Source of the DNA: a virus
Lineage: Duplodnaviria > Caudoviricetes
Reading direction: 5' to 3' (one strand)
IMG/VR virus record: IMGVR_UViG_3300032221_000187
Coordinates: 1-45,036 of that record
Length of the DNA stretch: 45,036 nt
The number at the start of each line of letters is the position of its first letter. The stretch's first letter is position 1. Positions 4,154 to 33,500 of this stretch are shown piece after piece. The position numbers were made by a program, and so were the translations under genes. The notes below the pieces were generated by a model. It was not told where the DNA came from. It saw only the letters and a list, made by a program, of their open reading frames with translations, and made no database searches.

Positions 4154-5236
4154 TCATAACGCGCGATAATACTCCGCCAAAAAGTTCAACGCATCGCGGT
4201 GCTCGGAGCGGTAACTGGCGGTGTTGTAAATTGAATTTAATTGAGAAAATGCGTGTGTATGCCCAAGGACAACTTCAATAATGTGTGGGGGCGTTTTGGC
4301 GCGACCAAGGATCGTCGCCGCCGTTCTGCGCAAATCATGCCGCGTCCAGTTCGTGACGCCAGAGCGCGCGTCGAGCTTGGCTTGATACTGCGTCCAGTAT
4401 TTATACCACGGTAACCCGGTCGCACGGTGCCGCCGGATGACCTCCACAGCGTCGTCAGAGAGCGGCACAACAAGCGTCTCCCCATTCTTGCGACGGTGTC
4501 CCGGTATCGTCCACAGGCGGGCAGGGAGATCAAACTCCGCATCTGTTGATCCGCACACCTCGTTTAACCGTGTCACGGTCAGTAGCAGCAGCCGGATTGC
4601 GTCATCGTAGGGCGTACTCTCAAGGTGGGCGAAAACTTTTCTGAGCTCGTCATCGCTGAGTGTCCGATCCCGCGCCGGATTATGCGCCCCACGCGGCTGC
4701 TCCAACTCCTGCGCATCCAGATTTACCAGCTGACGTTTGCTGGCCCACTTCAGGACGGGTCTAAAATAACGCACCGCCGCCCCAGCGTTGGTGTGCGACG
4801 GGTGCCGATCAACGATGTGCTGCAAGTCTGTAACCGTGACACGGTGTAACGGTGCGACCTTGAGAGGCGCAAATATATGCTCGATTGTTTTACGACACCG
4901 CGCCCACGACTTCGGCACCGCGCCAGCTTCTTCATACGTGTTTAGGAGACTCAGGAGCGTGGTCTCACGGTCTGGAGCATATGGGGTAGTACGGATGGCC
5001 CTGGCGCGCTCACGGGCTTCGCTAAGGCTGATTTGAGGGTACGGGCCTATATCCACCCGCTGACGCTTGCGGGCGGGCCCCAGCGCCGCTACCAATGACC
5101 AACGCGCCGATGTCGTGGCTGCACGGAACTCCAAACCCGGCGCAGCCCCGTCACGGATATACACGCGTCGCTGTCGGGCCTCCTTCACAGCCTGACGCAA
5201 CTGCGCGTCTGTCAGGGGCGGAATTATCTTGGGCAA
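4154..5236 (-). CDS. int: Tyrosine integrase with N-terminal arm-binding domain (P4-like)
   Basis: Arm domain RDGAAPGLEFR...IGPYPQISLSEARERA. Catalytic R (LTVTRLNE), K (RKNG), HDLR, LGH and Y (IYN). TTG start with GGGAGG Shine-Dalgarno. Confidence 0.92.
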   Translation of the reverse strand: MPKIIPPLTDAQLRQAVKEARQRRVYIRDGAAPGLEFRAATTSARWSLVAALGPARKRQRVDIGPYPQISLSEARERARAIRTTPYAPDRETTLLSLLNTYEEAGAVPKSWARCRKTIEHIFAPLKVAPLHRVTVTDLQHIVDRHPSHTNAGAAVRYFRPVLKWASKRQLVNLDAQELEQPRGAHNPARDRTLSDDELRKVFAHLESTPYDDAIRLLLLTVTRLNEVCGSTDAEFDLPARLWTIPGHRRKNGETLVVPLSDDAVEVIRRHRATGLPWYKYWTQYQAKLDARSGVTNWTRHDLRRTAATILGRAKTPPHIIEVVLGHTHAFSQLNSIYNTASYRSEHRDALNFLAEYYRAL

Positions 5237-6154: not shown

Positions 6155-6275
6155 GGCTGGGCCCCCGGGTCGCCAGTAGGGGCGGGGGTGCACGTGCACA
6201 CGCGCGCACGCGCTACGCACACACGCGGTAAAAACTACACGCGCACGATTAAATACTCACACATGCACACGTTGG
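6155..6275. other. GC-rich/CACGCG low-complexity tract at the transcription divergence point; candidate genome end or packaging site
   Basis: GGGCCCCCGGG...GGGGCGGGGGTGCACGTGCACACGCGCGCACGCG...CACACACGCG. Genes run leftward on one side and rightward on the other. Function inferred only. Confidence 0.35.
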
Positions 6276-8678: not shown

Positions 8679-10331
8679 ATGTTTCAGCTTGTCAATTTGA
8701 CTACGGGTGAGTTCCTCACTCGTAAAAACGGTCACACGTTTACACTCGACGATGGCCGCAAGGCATCCCGAGCAGCGCGCCTCTTAACCAAACCGGGGGG
8801 CGTCAAGTATCAGCCGCGTAAAGTAGCGCCTGTCGTTGACCTCTCATGGCGTCAGCGTGAGCAGGATCGCTTTAATAGTGGTGAGTATCTGCCACTGTGT
8901 GCTGACTTGGCGTTCCATGCCAAGCTGGCTAAACCGTTGCACTATGCACATACGGCCAAGCGCAAGCCCACACTTATTGCCTACACTAAAGATGATGAGC
9001 GTGGCGCAGCCGATAAACAGTCAGTGATGACGATTGAAGCCTATATTGAACTGATAGCGCAAGAACACTGGTCGACGCAGTTAAAGACTGCGCTTGCTAA
9101 AAGACAGCTAGAATATGCAACCGCAGCATACAAGCCATTCTTGTTGGCGACGGATGCTGACGATATTGTTAGTGTATATACTAACTACGATGAGGACAGT
9201 GAGAGTGTATCTAAATCATGTATGCGCTTCGAGGAAGATGACAGCACATGGTCAAAAGTTGACGGTAAACGGTATCACCCTTGCCGTGTGTATGCTGCTG
9301 GCGATCTCGCTGTTGCTTATCTGACAAATGATGACGGTTACACGGTTGCACGTGCCCTTGTCTGGCCCGAGCGTAAACTATTCAGCCGTGTCTATGATAG
9401 CTCTGGCAGGTTAACGCCATTACTTAAACATGCAGGTTATACGCCGAGTTATTACCACGACAGTAGCAACACGTCATTCAGAGGCGCGAAGTTACTCAAA
9501 ATAATTACTGACGACGACAAAATTGTTGCGCCTTATCTCGATGAGGTGGGCTACGTAGATATACTCGACGACGGCCTTGTTATTGGTGGTCAATATCCTG
9601 CGCGTAGCACTGATGGTGTGCTTGAGCGTGACAACATTACATCTGACCACGATTGGATATGTGAGCACTGTGAGGAGGGCTTTTCTGAGGGTGACTATTC
9701 ATACGAGGTCTATACCCGTGGCAATCAAACACGGTCGCAGACATGGTGTGAACATTGCCGTATGGATAGTGCGTTCTACTGCGAAGGCACTACTGAATAT
9801 TACAGCGACGCACATGTCGAGTGCCGCACTATAGATAACATGTCGTATTGCGGCGCATATGCCGACGAACATGCGCAATACTGTGACCTCAACGAGGAAT
9901 ATACTTTTGAGGAAACCGAAGAAGTTATCATCAAGGTCGATGATGACGGCGAAGAGCATACAGAAAGTTGGAGCGAGGGCGCACGTGAAGAGTATGCCTA
10001 CCTCGGGTGGGATAGCCGTTGGTATCACAAGGATATTGAGTGCGTCACAGTCATTAGTGAGCGGTATCTTCCACTTACACGGTCACGCACAACTCGTAGT
10101 CCAGATGGCGTGTATCCCTATTACACCAGCTTTGTGGAGATTGCTTGGTATTACGACCGCAAGCAAAAGATACCACAATACATGATCGATAATGGCAGCG
10201 CACGTGTCGTCGAGGCTGATGGCGTCAGTTACCTGTCGGGCTATCGTGATTACTATCCAGTGTGGCGTCCGCGCTTGGACGTTGGCCCACTGGTTAACAT
10301 AATGGAGGAACCCTACTATGTCGCTGCTTAA
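8679..10331 (+). CDS. Large hypothetical early protein with acidic Cys-rich (CxxC) C-terminal repeats
   Basis: 550 aa. Core SCM...ARALVW...RVY...PYLD, then CEHC...CEHC...YCE and acidic segments. Confidence 0.7.
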   Translation: MFQLVNLTTGEFLTRKNGHTFTLDDGRKASRAARLLTKPGGVKYQPRKVAPVVDLSWRQREQDRFNSGEYLPLCADLAFHAKLAKPLHYAHTAKRKPTLIAYTKDDERGAADKQSVMTIEAYIELIAQEHWSTQLKTALAKRQLEYATAAYKPFLLATDADDIVSVYTNYDEDSESVSKSCMRFEEDDSTWSKVDGKRYHPCRVYAAGDLAVAYLTNDDGYTVARALVWPERKLFSRVYDSSGRLTPLLKHAGYTPSYYHDSSNTSFRGAKLLKIITDDDKIVAPYLDEVGYVDILDDGLVIGGQYPARSTDGVLERDNITSDHDWICEHCEEGFSEGDYSYEVYTRGNQTRSQTWCEHCRMDSAFYCEGTTEYYSDAHVECRTIDNMSYCGAYADEHAQYCDLNEEYTFEETEEVIIKVDDDGEEHTESWSEGAREEYAYLGWDSRWYHKDIECVTVISERYLPLTRSRTTRSPDGVYPYYTSFVEIAWYYDRKQKIPQYMIDNGSARVVEADGVSYLSGYRDYYPVWRPRLDVGPLVNIMEEPYYVAA

Positions 10332-14619: not shown

Positions 14620-15267
14620 ATGGCTATTCATTCACTGGATTTTCGATTGGTAGGAACATCACCGCTTCTTCTTAATAACCCGCAGACGGTTGACGCATTA
14701 TCAGCCGCGTCGATTGCGATTAAGGAGTTGAGCGGTAAGCGTAAGCGCACTGAAACCGAAGACATGGAACTTCGTAAGAAGAAATTCATGGCGGGTTTGT
14801 ATCTGACAAGTGATGGTGCGCCATATATCCCCGCTTACAACATCCAGCGTTCCGCCCAGGAAGCTGGCCGCTTATCTAAGCAGGGTAAGATTTGGGATCG
14901 TGGTGTATGGCTCACTGAGCATCAGTGTTTGCTAGATTACAAAGGCCCAAAGACAGCCGAGGGTTTGTGGGAGGACAAACGGTTTGTCGATAATCGTGAC
15001 GGTAAAGTTGGTAACGGCGCACGTATTGTCGTGACCCGCCCAATCTTTCACCAGTGGTCAGCCGACGTTAGCTTTAATTTTGAAGACGAGATTGCAAACC
15101 CAGGCGACATTGTCGCTCACTTGTTCCACGCCGGTAAGATGATTGGCGTTGGCACATATCGTCAGCGATTTGGTCGCTTTGATATTGAGGTATTGGGTGG
15201 CTCGGTTGACGTATCCAAATACACAAAAAACTTAGGCATTATTAATCACGTTAAGAAAGCTGCATAA
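14620..15267 (+). CDS. Stand-alone Cas7/RAMP-like RNA-binding protein (putative effector of the adjacent pentamer array)
   Basis: RAMP hallmarks in order: beta1 FRLVGTSPLLL; YIPAYNIQRSAQEA (compare Cas7 .IPGSSLKG.LR); hairpin ending VTRPIF; WSADVSFNF; C-terminal Gly-rich loop AGKMIGVGTYRQRFGRFDI. No other cas genes nearby. Confidence 0.75.
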   Translation: MAIHSLDFRLVGTSPLLLNNPQTVDALSAASIAIKELSGKRKRTETEDMELRKKKFMAGLYLTSDGAPYIPAYNIQRSAQEAGRLSKQGKIWDRGVWLTEHQCLLDYKGPKTAEGLWEDKRFVDNRDGKVGNGARIVVTRPIFHQWSADVSFNFEDEIANPGDIVAHLFHAGKMIGVGTYRQRFGRFDIEVLGGSVDVSKYTKNLGIINHVKKAA

Positions 15268-15268
15268 C

Positions 15269-15817
15269 ATGACAGACATTACAGATATGATTGACGACGA
15301 ATGGCCCTCAAACAATCCACCTGACCCGGTGGATGTTGACCATATACAGGTAGCGGTCGATAAGTTTCTTGCCAGCAATTTTGCTGACGGGCAGCTTATC
15401 ACGCACGCTTGGCTGCATGAGGCGCTCGGTATCCCCGAAGCGCCTGGCAGTATGCCGAAAGAACAGGCGCAGCCCTTGCAGTTCAGATATATGTCTGCGG
15501 TGGGTAAAGTTAGGGACATCTTGTTAGAGGAGCACTCCATCGCGCTGCGCAGCGTGCATGGTGACGGTTATTCTATTGTCCCGCCTGCCGAGCAGCCTGC
15601 ATGGGCCAAGAGGGGGCTGAACAAGGATTTGAACAAAGCGTTCATTCTCGCGTCAAGCCGCGCCACGTTTGTAAGGACTGACGGACTTACTGACGCACAA
15701 AAGAATGAGATGACGGCTGTTCAGGCTGGCATCAGTACCATGAAGTCCCACCTCTCTGCGGCTAGGGCCAAGGAGAAACGTGGTAACTTTTGGGATGTGA
15801 ATTCATCCGCTCAATAG
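15269..15817 (+). CDS. Accessory protein of the RAMP/array locus, wHTH-like N-domain plus helical C-domain
   Basis: Starts 1 nt after the RAMP stop and ends 8 nt before the array. ITHAWLHEALG...VGKVRDILLEEHSIALRSVHGDGYSIV resembles a helix plus wing. Confidence 0.6.
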   Translation: MTDITDMIDDEWPSNNPPDPVDVDHIQVAVDKFLASNFADGQLITHAWLHEALGIPEAPGSMPKEQAQPLQFRYMSAVGKVRDILLEEHSIALRSVHGDGYSIVPPAEQPAWAKRGLNKDLNKAFILASSRATFVRTDGLTDAQKNEMTAVQAGISTMKSHLSAARAKEKRGNFWDVNSSAQ

Positions 15818-15825
15818 AGGGTGTT

Positions 15826-16286
15826 TGCGTAGCGAAGCGCAGCGTAGCAAGGTTAAGCGAAGTCTAGCAAAGCTAAGCATAGCGCAGCAAAGAAGTCTTA
15901 CGACCTCTGCCGATTACGGTCGGCAGTAGCCGTTAGATGATAACGGAATTAGCCAAGTATAGCTAAGCGGAGCCTGGTTTAGCATAGCGTAGCCTTGTTT
16001 AGCAAAGCTAAGCATAGCGCAGCAAAGAAGTCTTACGACCTCTGCCGATTACGGTCGGCAGTAGCCGTTAGATGATAACGGAAACAGTATAGTATAGTGA
16101 TGTTTTGCGAAGCGCAGCGCAGCAAGGTCAAGCGAAGTTTAGCCGAGTTGAGCATAGCAAAGAAGTCTTACGACCTCTGCCGATTACGGTCGGCAGCAGC
16201 CGTTAGATGATAACGGATGGAGCCAAGCATAAGCCGAGCCTAGCATAGCAAAGCGGAGCATTGCCCTGCCCAGTAAAGCACAGCAG
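15826..16286 (+). ncRNA. Putative guide-RNA array: four (DGY-NN)n pentamer tracts separated by three 57-nt structured repeats
   Basis: Tracts 15826-15890 (13 units), 15951-16025 (15), 16086-16160 (15), 16221-16286 (13 plus one extra A). All 56 constant triplets are DGY: 39 AGC, 8 AGT, 4 TGC, 3 GGT, 2 TGT. Strand assumed from the operon. Confidence 0.8.
15891..16217 (+). repeat. 57-bp direct repeat x3 (15891-15947, 16026-16082, 16161-16217), period 135 bp
   Basis: AGAAGTCTTACGACCTCTGCCGATTACGGTCGGCAG(T/C)AGCCGTTAGATGATAACGGA, one substitution at 16197. Hairpins CTGCCGAT-TACG-GTCGGCAG and CCGTTA-GATGA-TAACGG. Confidence 0.95.
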
Positions 16287-17917: not shown

Positions 17918-18088
17918 ATGAAAATAGCGTTCTGTTTATTCCTAATGGGTGTGTGTTTTGCGTGTTTAGTTGAGGGTTTGTGGACGGATCTGTGGCGTAA
18001 GCTCGACGCACACTGGCCACAACACCACGGTCACACGGTCACACGGGTTGACCCTTGGTTCGATGATTTCCTTAATCCGAGGATATAA
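17918..18088 (+). CDS. Small membrane-anchored protein (56 aa)
   Basis: AGGAG Shine-Dalgarno; MKIAFCLFLMGVCFACLVEGLW... ends 1 nt before the polymerase ATG. Confidence 0.5.
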   Translation: MKIAFCLFLMGVCFACLVEGLWTDLWRKLDAHWPQHHGHTVTRVDPWFDDFLNPRI

Positions 18089-30500: not shown

Positions 30501-33500
30501 GGAGTTCTACACCGAGCTTCAGGGCTTTCTCACCGCCAAGCTGACGCATATATTCTAGCTGCTTACCGTGAATTGCTTCTCGCGCCGTAGCCGCATCTCT
30601 TGCAATACGACCGTCAGCGCCCATACGTTTATCAAGACTTTTAGCTACGTCATGTGTAGCCAAGAATTTACGCTTGGCCGCGCCGAGATACTCCCCGATT
30701 TTACTCCGGCGCAACCACCCATCATTAACTGGCGGGGGCGGGTCGATCTTTCTTGGTGCCGCTGGCGCGCGTGGTGGTTTTGGCGGCATACCTGTGCCGC
30801 CGCCCTGCATCTGCACAGCGCGTTCAGACAAACCAAGCGCAGCTTCAAGCGCCGTCATAGACTTTGATGGCAGGCCAAAGGCACGGCGCAGCCGATCCAT
30901 AATAGCCCCATACACGGTAGCACGGTGCCAATCTCTGAGCCCTATGCGTTTAGCAACGTCAGGCGGCAGCGTGACGCTTTTAAGCGCCGTACGGAACTCC
31001 GGGTTACCGTGAAACTCTGCAATAAATTCCAGAGCGTTCTTTAGGCCATAGTGCTGCTGTCTTGGGGTAAACTCTTTCGGCTTACCTCTCACTAACTTGG
31101 TAATGCTGGGGAGTTCTTTTGCAACAAAAGTCCGTACAGCGTCGATGTCTCTCTGAAGACGGGGATTATTTTTAATAGCTTCTACCGTGGCGGCGTGAGC
31201 TACTTCATGTAAAACTACATGGGGCGTCAGCATAGCGCCGGGATGAATAAAAACCTCACCCGTTGGACGATGGAAAAATCCATTCATCACACCGTCGGGG
31301 TGTGTATCCTTTAAAAATTTTGTATTTCTCTCTGTGGCAGCGAGGATATGTATTTTAGTGTCGCCAGCAACATCAAGCATTCGCTTGGTCACCAGCGGCA
31401 TAAACACACGGTCTAGCGGGTTCGCGGCGCGCAGGCGTGAAAATAGCGTCTTTGGATTGATAACATCTCTGGCGGTTACCGTCCGCGATACATCTAAATC
31501 TTTACCAAAAACATTTTTGACCGTGTGACCGGCAGCGGCAGCGTCAATCTTCTCAGCCGTCTTAGGTGTAAGCGTAGCATTTTTATCGACATGCGCCAGG
31601 AACTCATTCTCTGACAGGTCGTCGACCATGTCACCGCGAGGGCGTTTCTTTTCAGCCTTTGCTTCGGTGACGCCGAGGCGCTCGGCTTCTTTAGAAGCCT
31701 TGACCGCTTCGTTGCGCGCTGCTTGCTGCTTCTCGAACTCTGGGTTCAAATATTTAGCGGCGGCTTCTTTTTTCAGACGAGCAATACGTTCGGCTGGAGT
31801 TTCCTCTCCAGCTGGCTCCTCAACCTTGGGCTCAGGCTTTGGCTCTGGTTTAGGTTCTGGTTTAGGTTCTGGCTTGGGCTCTGGTTTAGGTTCTGGCTTG
31901 GGCTCTGGTTTAGTAGCAGCCTCAGAAACCGGCTTAGTAGGGCGAGGTCTAACGGGAGCAGGAGGCTCCTCGGTCACGGCACCACGACGCTCAAGTTCCT
32001 GCTTGAGCATAAGAGCTTCTTCTGGGTTCAGATTAGTGTCGGCAAGATTATCTAGTCCACCCTCGGAAGCGTGCTTACTTGCTGCGTAATTATTTCCTTC
32101 ACTAATGCGGTCCGCCTGAACCTCGGAGTTCATCTTTGTGAGGTCGCCACCGTGCAATCTGTTGTGGCGGTCGAGGAAGTTCATCACCCCCTCGTCGTTG
32201 ATCTTATTTACCGGGCGGCGGGCAATGCGGCGGGCTTCAGCGATAAGCTGCATCGCTGCATTAGGCGACATGTCGTCACCGATGTTTTCGGCAAGGCTCT
32301 CAGGAATAAACGCGTGCTTTTTGAAATCGCCCTTATTCTTGGCGGTGTTGGTTTGATGCTTCGCGTAGGCTTCAGCAATTTTTTTATCTTTGTTTAGCTC
32401 GGCGTTATGCGCCGCAAGCCGAGAATTAACCTCGTCCAGCATCGCGCCTAATTTTTTGTGAAGGTTTTTAACGCCTTCTTTATTTGTAACGGCAGCGGTG
32501 ATGTCTGCGTCTGTTAGTTTATGCTTGGCGACGATTTCAGCTGCGATGTTGTTGCTGGCCTTGCGCGCGGCAATTTCAGCCTTGTCACGGTTACCCGGTT
32601 TTCTGGCCTCAACGCTGCGTGATATTTTAGTCGGACGATCCCGAGTGCCGTAGTCTGGATGATCCACCGGCTTACCATCACGGATAAGCTCAGAAGTCCC
32701 CATGCGAGACTGATTGTGCTTCTGACGCGTATAAGCTGCTTCTTTACCAACAGCTTCAGCTACCTGCGTCAGGGCTTGGTCTGACGGAACTTTGTCCTCA
32801 ACATTGATCTCGTTGATGCCATCCCAGAAACCGGCTGGTTCTTGCGTATCATTTATGTTGTGTGGAGTGCGCTCAAATGGCTGACCCTGACGAACGGCGT
32901 CGCGCTCGCGGAGTGCGGCACCTGTGGGTGGCACATCCGCTTCTGGCAGAACGCCACGGCGGGCTTCGTCAGCATATTTTACTCGGTTAAGCGTATCTTC
33001 TAGCTTTACAGGTTTACCTGTCGGGGTAACCGGGTCGGCCTGACGATCTGCCAGCACCTGCTCAATCGGTTCGATGCGGACGGTCTGCTCTGGAGCTTTG
33101 ACAGCTTCCATAGCCGCTTTTTGATCTGGGAGCGTATCCGCAGTACCTGCTGATGCCTCAACTTCAGTTCCTTCGGGTGTGCGCGTGACAGCCGCACCGA
33201 CAGGTTCACCCTGTGCAGCGGCAGCGGCTACGTCCGCTTTTGACGCAACAGCGTGCGCCGGGTTCATCAAACCAGAAATTGAACCGTCTTTATGCGCCTC
33301 GCGGATGGCTTTGGTTGTAAGCCCTGCGTCTTTGGCGACATCATAGGTCATGCTACCTTTGCCGCGCCCAAGACTAACAACAACGCGCTTGGAGCCTTCA
33401 GCTACGGGAGGAATTTCTGTCCCTGGCGGGTAGCCGATAACAGGCTTGCGGCCTTCGGTCTGCGCCTCTTGTTGCGCAGCAACCGTCTCTGGCTTTTCAG

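Follow-up and report, generated by a model that had tools for sequence, protein, structure and literature searches.

A phage VIPR locus whose guide scaffold begins with adenine, and the Vipr residues that vary with it

How does a guide RNA work when its informative letters come in pairs, each pair set apart from the next by a near-constant trinucleotide, and what becomes of the protein that holds this trinucleotide when its first letter changes? The question is raised by a locus in IMG/VR virus record IMGVR_UViG_3300032221_000187, the whole of which (45,036 nucleotides, 74% complete according to CheckV) is referred to here as the window. In published VIPR systems, tracts of 9–16 pentamers combine a fixed trinucleotide with a hypervariable dinucleotide (NN); experiments in vitro and in E. 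coli have shown that these letters pair with DNA while one base, mostly the wobble base, is skipped, and that the guides repress transcription (10.64898/2026.04.26.720920). The locus described below is a VIPR system with an A-first scaffold. Its guide logic was known, and our addition is the pairing of the AGY scaffold with particular Vipr residues. The reading that we favor, with a probability of about 0.85, is that of a phage VIPR with an A-G-Y scaffold and four guide RNAs, which would be coated by Vipr and would pair with DNA with every third base skipped.

The array (15824–16286, + strand) consists of four tracts of NN-xGY pentamers with three 59-nt linkers between them, spaced 135 bases apart. 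Tract T1 (15824–15888) has 13 units, T2 (15949–16023) and T3 (16084–16158) have 15 each, and T4 (16219–16286) has 14 dinucleotides, one extra base near its 5' end and no linker copy behind it; tract lengths of 13–15 units lie inside the published range. On the + strand the repeat reads NN-AGY. In 55 pentamers, a count that leaves out the three terminal AA-AGA units and, in T4, both the final unit and the one holding the extra A, the first scaffold letter is A in 46, T in 6 and G in 3, the second is G without exception (55/55), and the third is C in 42 and T in 13. The triplets are AGC (38), AGT (8), TGC (4), GGT (3) and TGT (2), that is, AGY in 46 units and the canonical GGY in only 3 of the 55. 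The NN positions have entropies of 1.97 and 1.83 bits and use 14 of the 16 dinucleotides. The summed tract score of 54 compares with a mean of 0.04 and a maximum of 7 in 1000 dinucleotide shuffles, and T1–T4 are the sole tracts of this kind on the + strand of the window.

The four strings of variable dinucleotides listed in the first-pass annotation agree with the sequence, the extra A of T4 included, but their extents do not, each tract being one 5' unit longer than listed (TT, TT, AC and GG, respectively). The AA that closes the strings of T1–T3 is identical in all three and is likely part of the constant linker. The estimate of 26–30 informative nucleotides per unit was too high, because the tracts are mutually dependent, being partly copies of one another, and unique letters are fewer. 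Neither this likeness nor the departure from the published GGY scaffold is remarked on in the first-pass annotation. T1 and T2 have 24 identical bases before the linker, and with the linker included their ends (15864–15948 and 15999–16083) are identical at 84 of 85 positions. The middles of T1 and T3 (15834–15868 and 16109–16143) agree at 32 of 35 bases, all three differences being C/T, and T4 begins like T2, with 16 of 20 bases in common. The guides are in part mosaics, which suggests that new ones arise by recombination between units together with C/T changes that would keep G-U pairing. As a G in the target could pair with either C or U, the sites covered by T1 and T3 may be the same or sister ones. 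T4, with its register slip and missing linker, may be inactive. Among the sequencing runs listed as containing the array none is of RNA, and the single DNA run, which may be the source sample, shows no variants. The array is not covered end to end by any one contig, and for the order of T2 and T3 we rely on the original assembly. In two runs of the same study (X2 and X3), short contigs of low depth carry other AGC/TGC pentamer tracts, with less than 90% likeness to positions 15949–16016, and the source habitat may hold further AGY arrays. Promoter and terminator searches gave no excess over shuffles.

The linkers, or constant tails (15889–15948, 16024–16083 and 16159–16218, all on the + strand), are nearly invariant, the second being identical to the first at 59/59 positions and the third at 58/59. 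Linker 1 has a predicted fold of −21.4 kcal/mol (z −3.3) with three hairpins, of which the middle one has a UACG loop; the reverse strand folds too (z −4.3), and the sequence 3' of T4 is predicted to fold no better than shuffles. No Rfam family came near threshold for the linker. A hammerhead ribozyme, as in the linkers of VIPR types I and V, was considered and rejected, as it had no Rfam match near threshold and its core motif was not seen by eye either.

The vipr gene (14620–15267, + strand) encodes a 215-aa RAMP (Cas7-like) protein, which phmmer aligned over residues 6–193 with the Vipr of SUSP1 (36pp_D, E 1.4e-21), whose structure, PDB 36pp, is published (10.64898/2026.04.26.720927). The protein belongs to phrog_4652 (E 1.8e-45), as do the Viprs of Medea1 and of Ounavirinae phages. 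A fold model built from 124 aligned relatives reached a pLDDT of 96.7 (33 for a single-sequence model), and among structures released to April 2026 the best folds found by Foldseek were Csm3/Cas7, with E-values of 5e-6 and weaker and TM scores of about 0.4–0.5. By homology and predicted fold, the protein is a single-RRM RAMP with a thumb and a glycine loop. Quick trees, built without the published typed reference set, did not resolve the fork that joins the Vipr of the window to that of the Ounavirinae. Behind vipr lies a vap1-like helper gene (15269–15817, + strand, 182 aa), whose counterpart in Shigella phage Z31, likewise directly behind vipr, is 26% identical (E 8e-14), both being phrog_5926 members, and which also matches the gene that follows vipr in Pseudomonas phage Medea1. 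The Z31 homologue is presumably vap1, judging from its position between vipr and the GGT arrays. The order vipr, helper, array is that of Ounavirinae phages. The locus is minimal, with a vap-like gene and neither a CRISPR array, other cas genes nor a nuclease.

The type II VIPR systems of SUSP1 and of a Pseudomonas fulva prophage resemble this locus in having a Vipr homolog, a vap1-like gene behind it, downstream tracts of 13–15 units, a constant structured piece after each tract (absent behind T4 in the window) and a phage location. The window differs from them in its AGY rather than GGY scaffold, in the replacement of His17 and Asp177 by Asn and Thr, in having no tract upstream of vipr, and in a linker of three predicted hairpins in which no pseudoknot was found. 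Repeats other than GGY are in print, namely NNNGG, YNNNG and NNNNG (10.64898/2026.04.26.720920) and GAC/NN, CAC/NN, WGT/NN and TGH/NN (10.64898/2026.10.21.760802). Like these, the window has a non-GGY fixed trinucleotide beside a Vipr fold; AGY/NN falls within the YNNNG class and overlaps WGT/NN, and it fits the wider VIPR definition, which does not demand GGY (10.64898/2026.04.26.720920). The Cas7/Csm3 backbone of Class 1 CRISPR has the same RAMP fold, thumb and glycine loop included, but the window locus lacks CRISPR repeats and other cas genes, and its guide letters are interleaved with a pentamer scaffold. The change from GGY to AGY was among the substitutions tested in SUSP1, and according to the text perturbing GGY abolished silencing (10.64898/2026.04.26.720920); the locus in the window is a natural version of this perturbation. 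In the available parts of the published VIPR texts, AGY or AGC is named only as an engineered substitution and not as a natural scaffold, with logo figures S17 and S10 that may include AGY, and these parts contain no link between residues and scaffold, for which the figures and data files may hold one.

AGY VIPRs are a recurring class. A scan of 10 of the 64 parts of IMG/VR for seven consecutive AGY-NN units returned 121 loci, most of them plain microsatellites without Vipr; in IMG/VR as a whole the motif occurs in about 840 stretches, again mostly simple repeats. A Vipr gene was present in the fetched DNA at 14 of the 121 (two on the same contig), of which 12 are A-majority and 2 mixed, and when ten whole records were searched, seven contained Vipr, including two that had not been counted before. 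The NN letters at AGY loci beside Vipr differ from unit to unit. In a set assembled by Vipr homology (79 IMG/VR and 12 metagenome loci), the clear tracts near the gene are all G-majority at the first letter; many loci of this set have no called tract, and a few weak six-unit calls are mixed. On quick trees the class requires three to five changes, at least two of which are forced by well-supported branches. The first letter is A in 76 of 77 units at L400 and is mixed A/T/G at L374 and L406.

The organization of AGY arrays varies. In a provirus (L448, reverse strand 291–650), 72 AGY-NN pentamers follow one another without interruption next to a divergent Vipr gene; this array has no linkers, so its processing must differ. 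Two loci (L438 and L454) have staggered AGC arrays, and the divergent Vipr next to them has a long insertion in its glycine loop; at L438 successive tracts overlap by one base. Four related phages (L362, L435, L446 and L447) have 6–9 AGY tracts with 11-nt linkers and some guides in common. At L400 and L407 the tracts end in a constant AA, as in the window, and n tracts come with n−1 structured linkers, whose sequence and predicted fold are unlike those of the window. Three further records (L377, L414 and L459) have AGY tracts with variable NN and no Vipr found on the record; as they are 6–16% complete, solo guides would be indistinguishable from truncation.

What then distinguishes an AGY Vipr? 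In SUSP1, His17 and Asp177 are the residues that read the first scaffold G (10.64898/2026.04.26.720927). In the alignment both readers are replaced in the window Vipr (SUSP1 > window: H17>N19, D177>T179), while residues to which the same structural report assigns contacts with G2, Y3 or DNA are either retained or exchanged conservatively (R138>R140, W178>Y180, R179>R181, K33>K35, R39>R41, K82>R84, G87>G89, K88>K90). Window numbering is used from here on. An unprompted scan of alignment columns ranked positions 138, 179, 55, 183 and 19 first, Arg138 being found in 29 of 30 GGY and in 0 of 10 AGY Viprs. After dereplication at 70%, with mixed, tract-less and fragmentary loci dropped, 42 of 62 rows remained. 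Among these, Arg138 is absent from 11/11 AGY and 2/31 GGY loci and His/Gln19 from 10/11 and 2/31. Asp/Glu179 is absent from 11/11 and 4/31, in a column that is biased because the pattern used to fetch most of the GGY set admitted no residue but Thr or Asp there. Arg138 and Asp/Glu179 are both absent from 11/11 AGY and 0/31 GGY loci, a rule drawn up post hoc. The best tree gives 5 independent scaffold contrasts, of which 2 stand on well-supported branches, so a sign test cannot reach significance. No single residue predicts the scaffold: in the Ounavirinae Vipr, Ser138 goes together with GGT arrays, and one AGY Vipr keeps His19. Thr179 alone was rejected as the cause of AGY, six GGY loci having Thr179.

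In a forward test, five GTDB loci were chosen by protein motif alone (N19/T179 type); one has no tract, and the other four have tracts that are all A-majority, these loci being kin of one AGY lineage. The six nearest relatives of the window Vipr (P0002–P0007) lack both Arg138 and Asp/Glu179 and would by these residues be predicted to have AGY arrays; their DNA was looked for and not found. The replacing residues differ from one AGY Vipr to another (N/S/A/C/D/H at 19, T/G/N/C/S/A at 179), and the set N19/K55/T179 is common to the window, L362, L378 and the five GTDB loci. A side chain at position 138 would plausibly point toward the first base, since the arginine that binds G2 follows two residues later in the same strand. 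The co-occurrence of residues and scaffold suggests that the pocket reading letter 1 (residues 19, 55, 138 and 179) has changed, either to prefer adenine or to require guanine no longer; the odds between an adenine that is actively read and one that is simply tolerated are about even. A stricter proposal is a specificity code at letter 1, in which several lineages would have swapped Arg138, Asp179 and His19 for small polar or hydrophobic residues, turning GGY into AGY and creating orthogonal systems; we hold it to be doubtful. Three other Viprs (L068, L070 and L073) lack the G2-binding arginine, with Phe at 140, and have degenerate upstream pentamer arrays not fitting xGY, possibly a second pairing of residue and scaffold.

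By analogy with SUSP1 and P. fulva, a + strand transcript of the array likely gives rise to four guide RNAs. Cleavage in or close to the linkers would yield units of about 130 nt, and one Vipr per pentamer would hold AGY and expose NN, forming a filament. The exposed NN pairs would then bind DNA with a one-base skip, as they do in these two systems, which likewise suggest that the genes silenced would be those of a competing phage or prophage. Repression is favored over cutting because there is no nuclease in the locus, again by analogy with SUSP1 and P. fulva.

That the dinucleotides form a gapped guide ignoring the wobble position had been proposed at first pass from the sequence, and this rediscovers a code already published. 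The reading coincides with that code, in a locus with Vipr and helper, and is on grounds of this homology very likely right; the skip rule itself would carry over to the window from the homologous systems. The expected targets did not emerge above chance. No convincing full match had been seen by eye in the window at first pass. Skips of 0–3 gave no excess in the window and 85 loci. The comparison with shuffled guides that the first-pass annotation had proposed as a check likewise gave no excess for any skip from 0 to 3 in about 1 Mb of related phage DNA (82 loci, including all of Rhizobium phage RHph_TM3_14A). Exact seeds with a 1-nt skip in IMG/VR returned 6 loci for T3 (16-letter seed), at least 120 for T2 (15-letter seed, 58 of 64 parts), 62 for T4 and 59 for T1, all at chance level. 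The best full-guide scores were 23/32 (T3), 25/32 (T2), 23/28 (T4) and 23/28 (T1), where 0.3–0.6 such sites per guide are expected by chance; those of T4 and T1 exceed the published 80% cut-off only because the seed was forced. A 9-unit match of T3 in L080 and L081 was rejected, as the 5' half is missing and the phages, in which it falls within a recombination-protein-like gene, are unrelated. There were 0 matches to a 22-letter core of T3 in metagenome contigs, to the T1/T3 pattern in GTDB, or, as exact targets in IMG/VR, to the AGY guide common to L435 and L446, and 70 guides of other AGY or mixed loci gave nothing convincing in 2.1 Mb of fetched DNA (skips 0–2). The large collections were scanned with skip 1 only and required an exact core of 15–22 letters, so that a seed mismatch means a missed target, and the host pangenome lay outside the search; these nulls consequently say little against the mechanism.

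Could the array be a decaying or non-coding simple repeat without guide function? The partial copying between units, the out-of-register T4 and the many AGY microsatellites of IMG/VR that have no Vipr would fit this, but near-maximal NN entropy beside an invariant G, structured linkers identical at 58–59 of 59 positions, and an intact vipr and helper directly upstream make it very improbable. Only slightly more credible, and still improbable, is an AGY variant that uses another register or substrate, be it a different skip length or RNA. Such a variant would account for the missing 1-nt-skip target, but in the same 1 Mb or so of related phage DNA the guides read with skips of 0, 2 and 3 scored no higher than their shuffled versions, the thumb, bundle and non-target-strand residues of the SUSP1 Vipr are kept, and the period is still five.

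A much stronger competitor, to which we give somewhat less than even odds, is that Vipr merely lost its readout of letter 1 and that adenine prevails through mutation bias and copying between units. Units do copy from one another, T and G are tolerated at letter 1 in 9 of the 55 units, the mixed A/T/G tracts of L374 and L406 point the same way, and the residues that replace the readers at 19 and 179 vary among AGY Viprs. Drift should, however, fix T or C equally, whereas an A-majority of about 70–100% recurs in several lineages, and the N19/K55/T179 set recurs in the window, L362, L378 and the five GTDB loci.

The significance of an A-first VIPR lies in the few Vipr positions (19, 55, 138 and 179) that change along with the scaffold across unrelated phages, which makes scaffold discrimination by Vipr directly testable. 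This bears on the warfare with decoy guides between phages and satellites, in which satellites use GGY decoy guides against SUSP1 (10.64898/2026.10.15.759431). If the specificity code at letter 1 is real, a scaffold switch would let a phage Vipr ignore GGY decoys of the satellite kind, and engineers would gain pairs of VIPRs that do not cross-react, as orthogonal programmable repressors.

The polymerase, the primase and a virion protein of the window have their nearest cultured relatives in Rhizobium phages of the RHph_TM3_14A group (32–42% identity, similar gene order), a weak hint of a possible alphaproteobacterial host. Among 80 phages that are related through their DNA polymerase, one (L490) also has a Vipr-like gene (E 2.4e-10). 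Elsewhere in the window, a 12-nt tandem repeat (31825–31913) is a coding low-complexity stretch of a 2447-aa virion gene on the minus strand, and short 8-nt tandem repeats, partly alike, occur in the early region (4829–4854, 6191–6227, 9334–9352 and 18026–18046).
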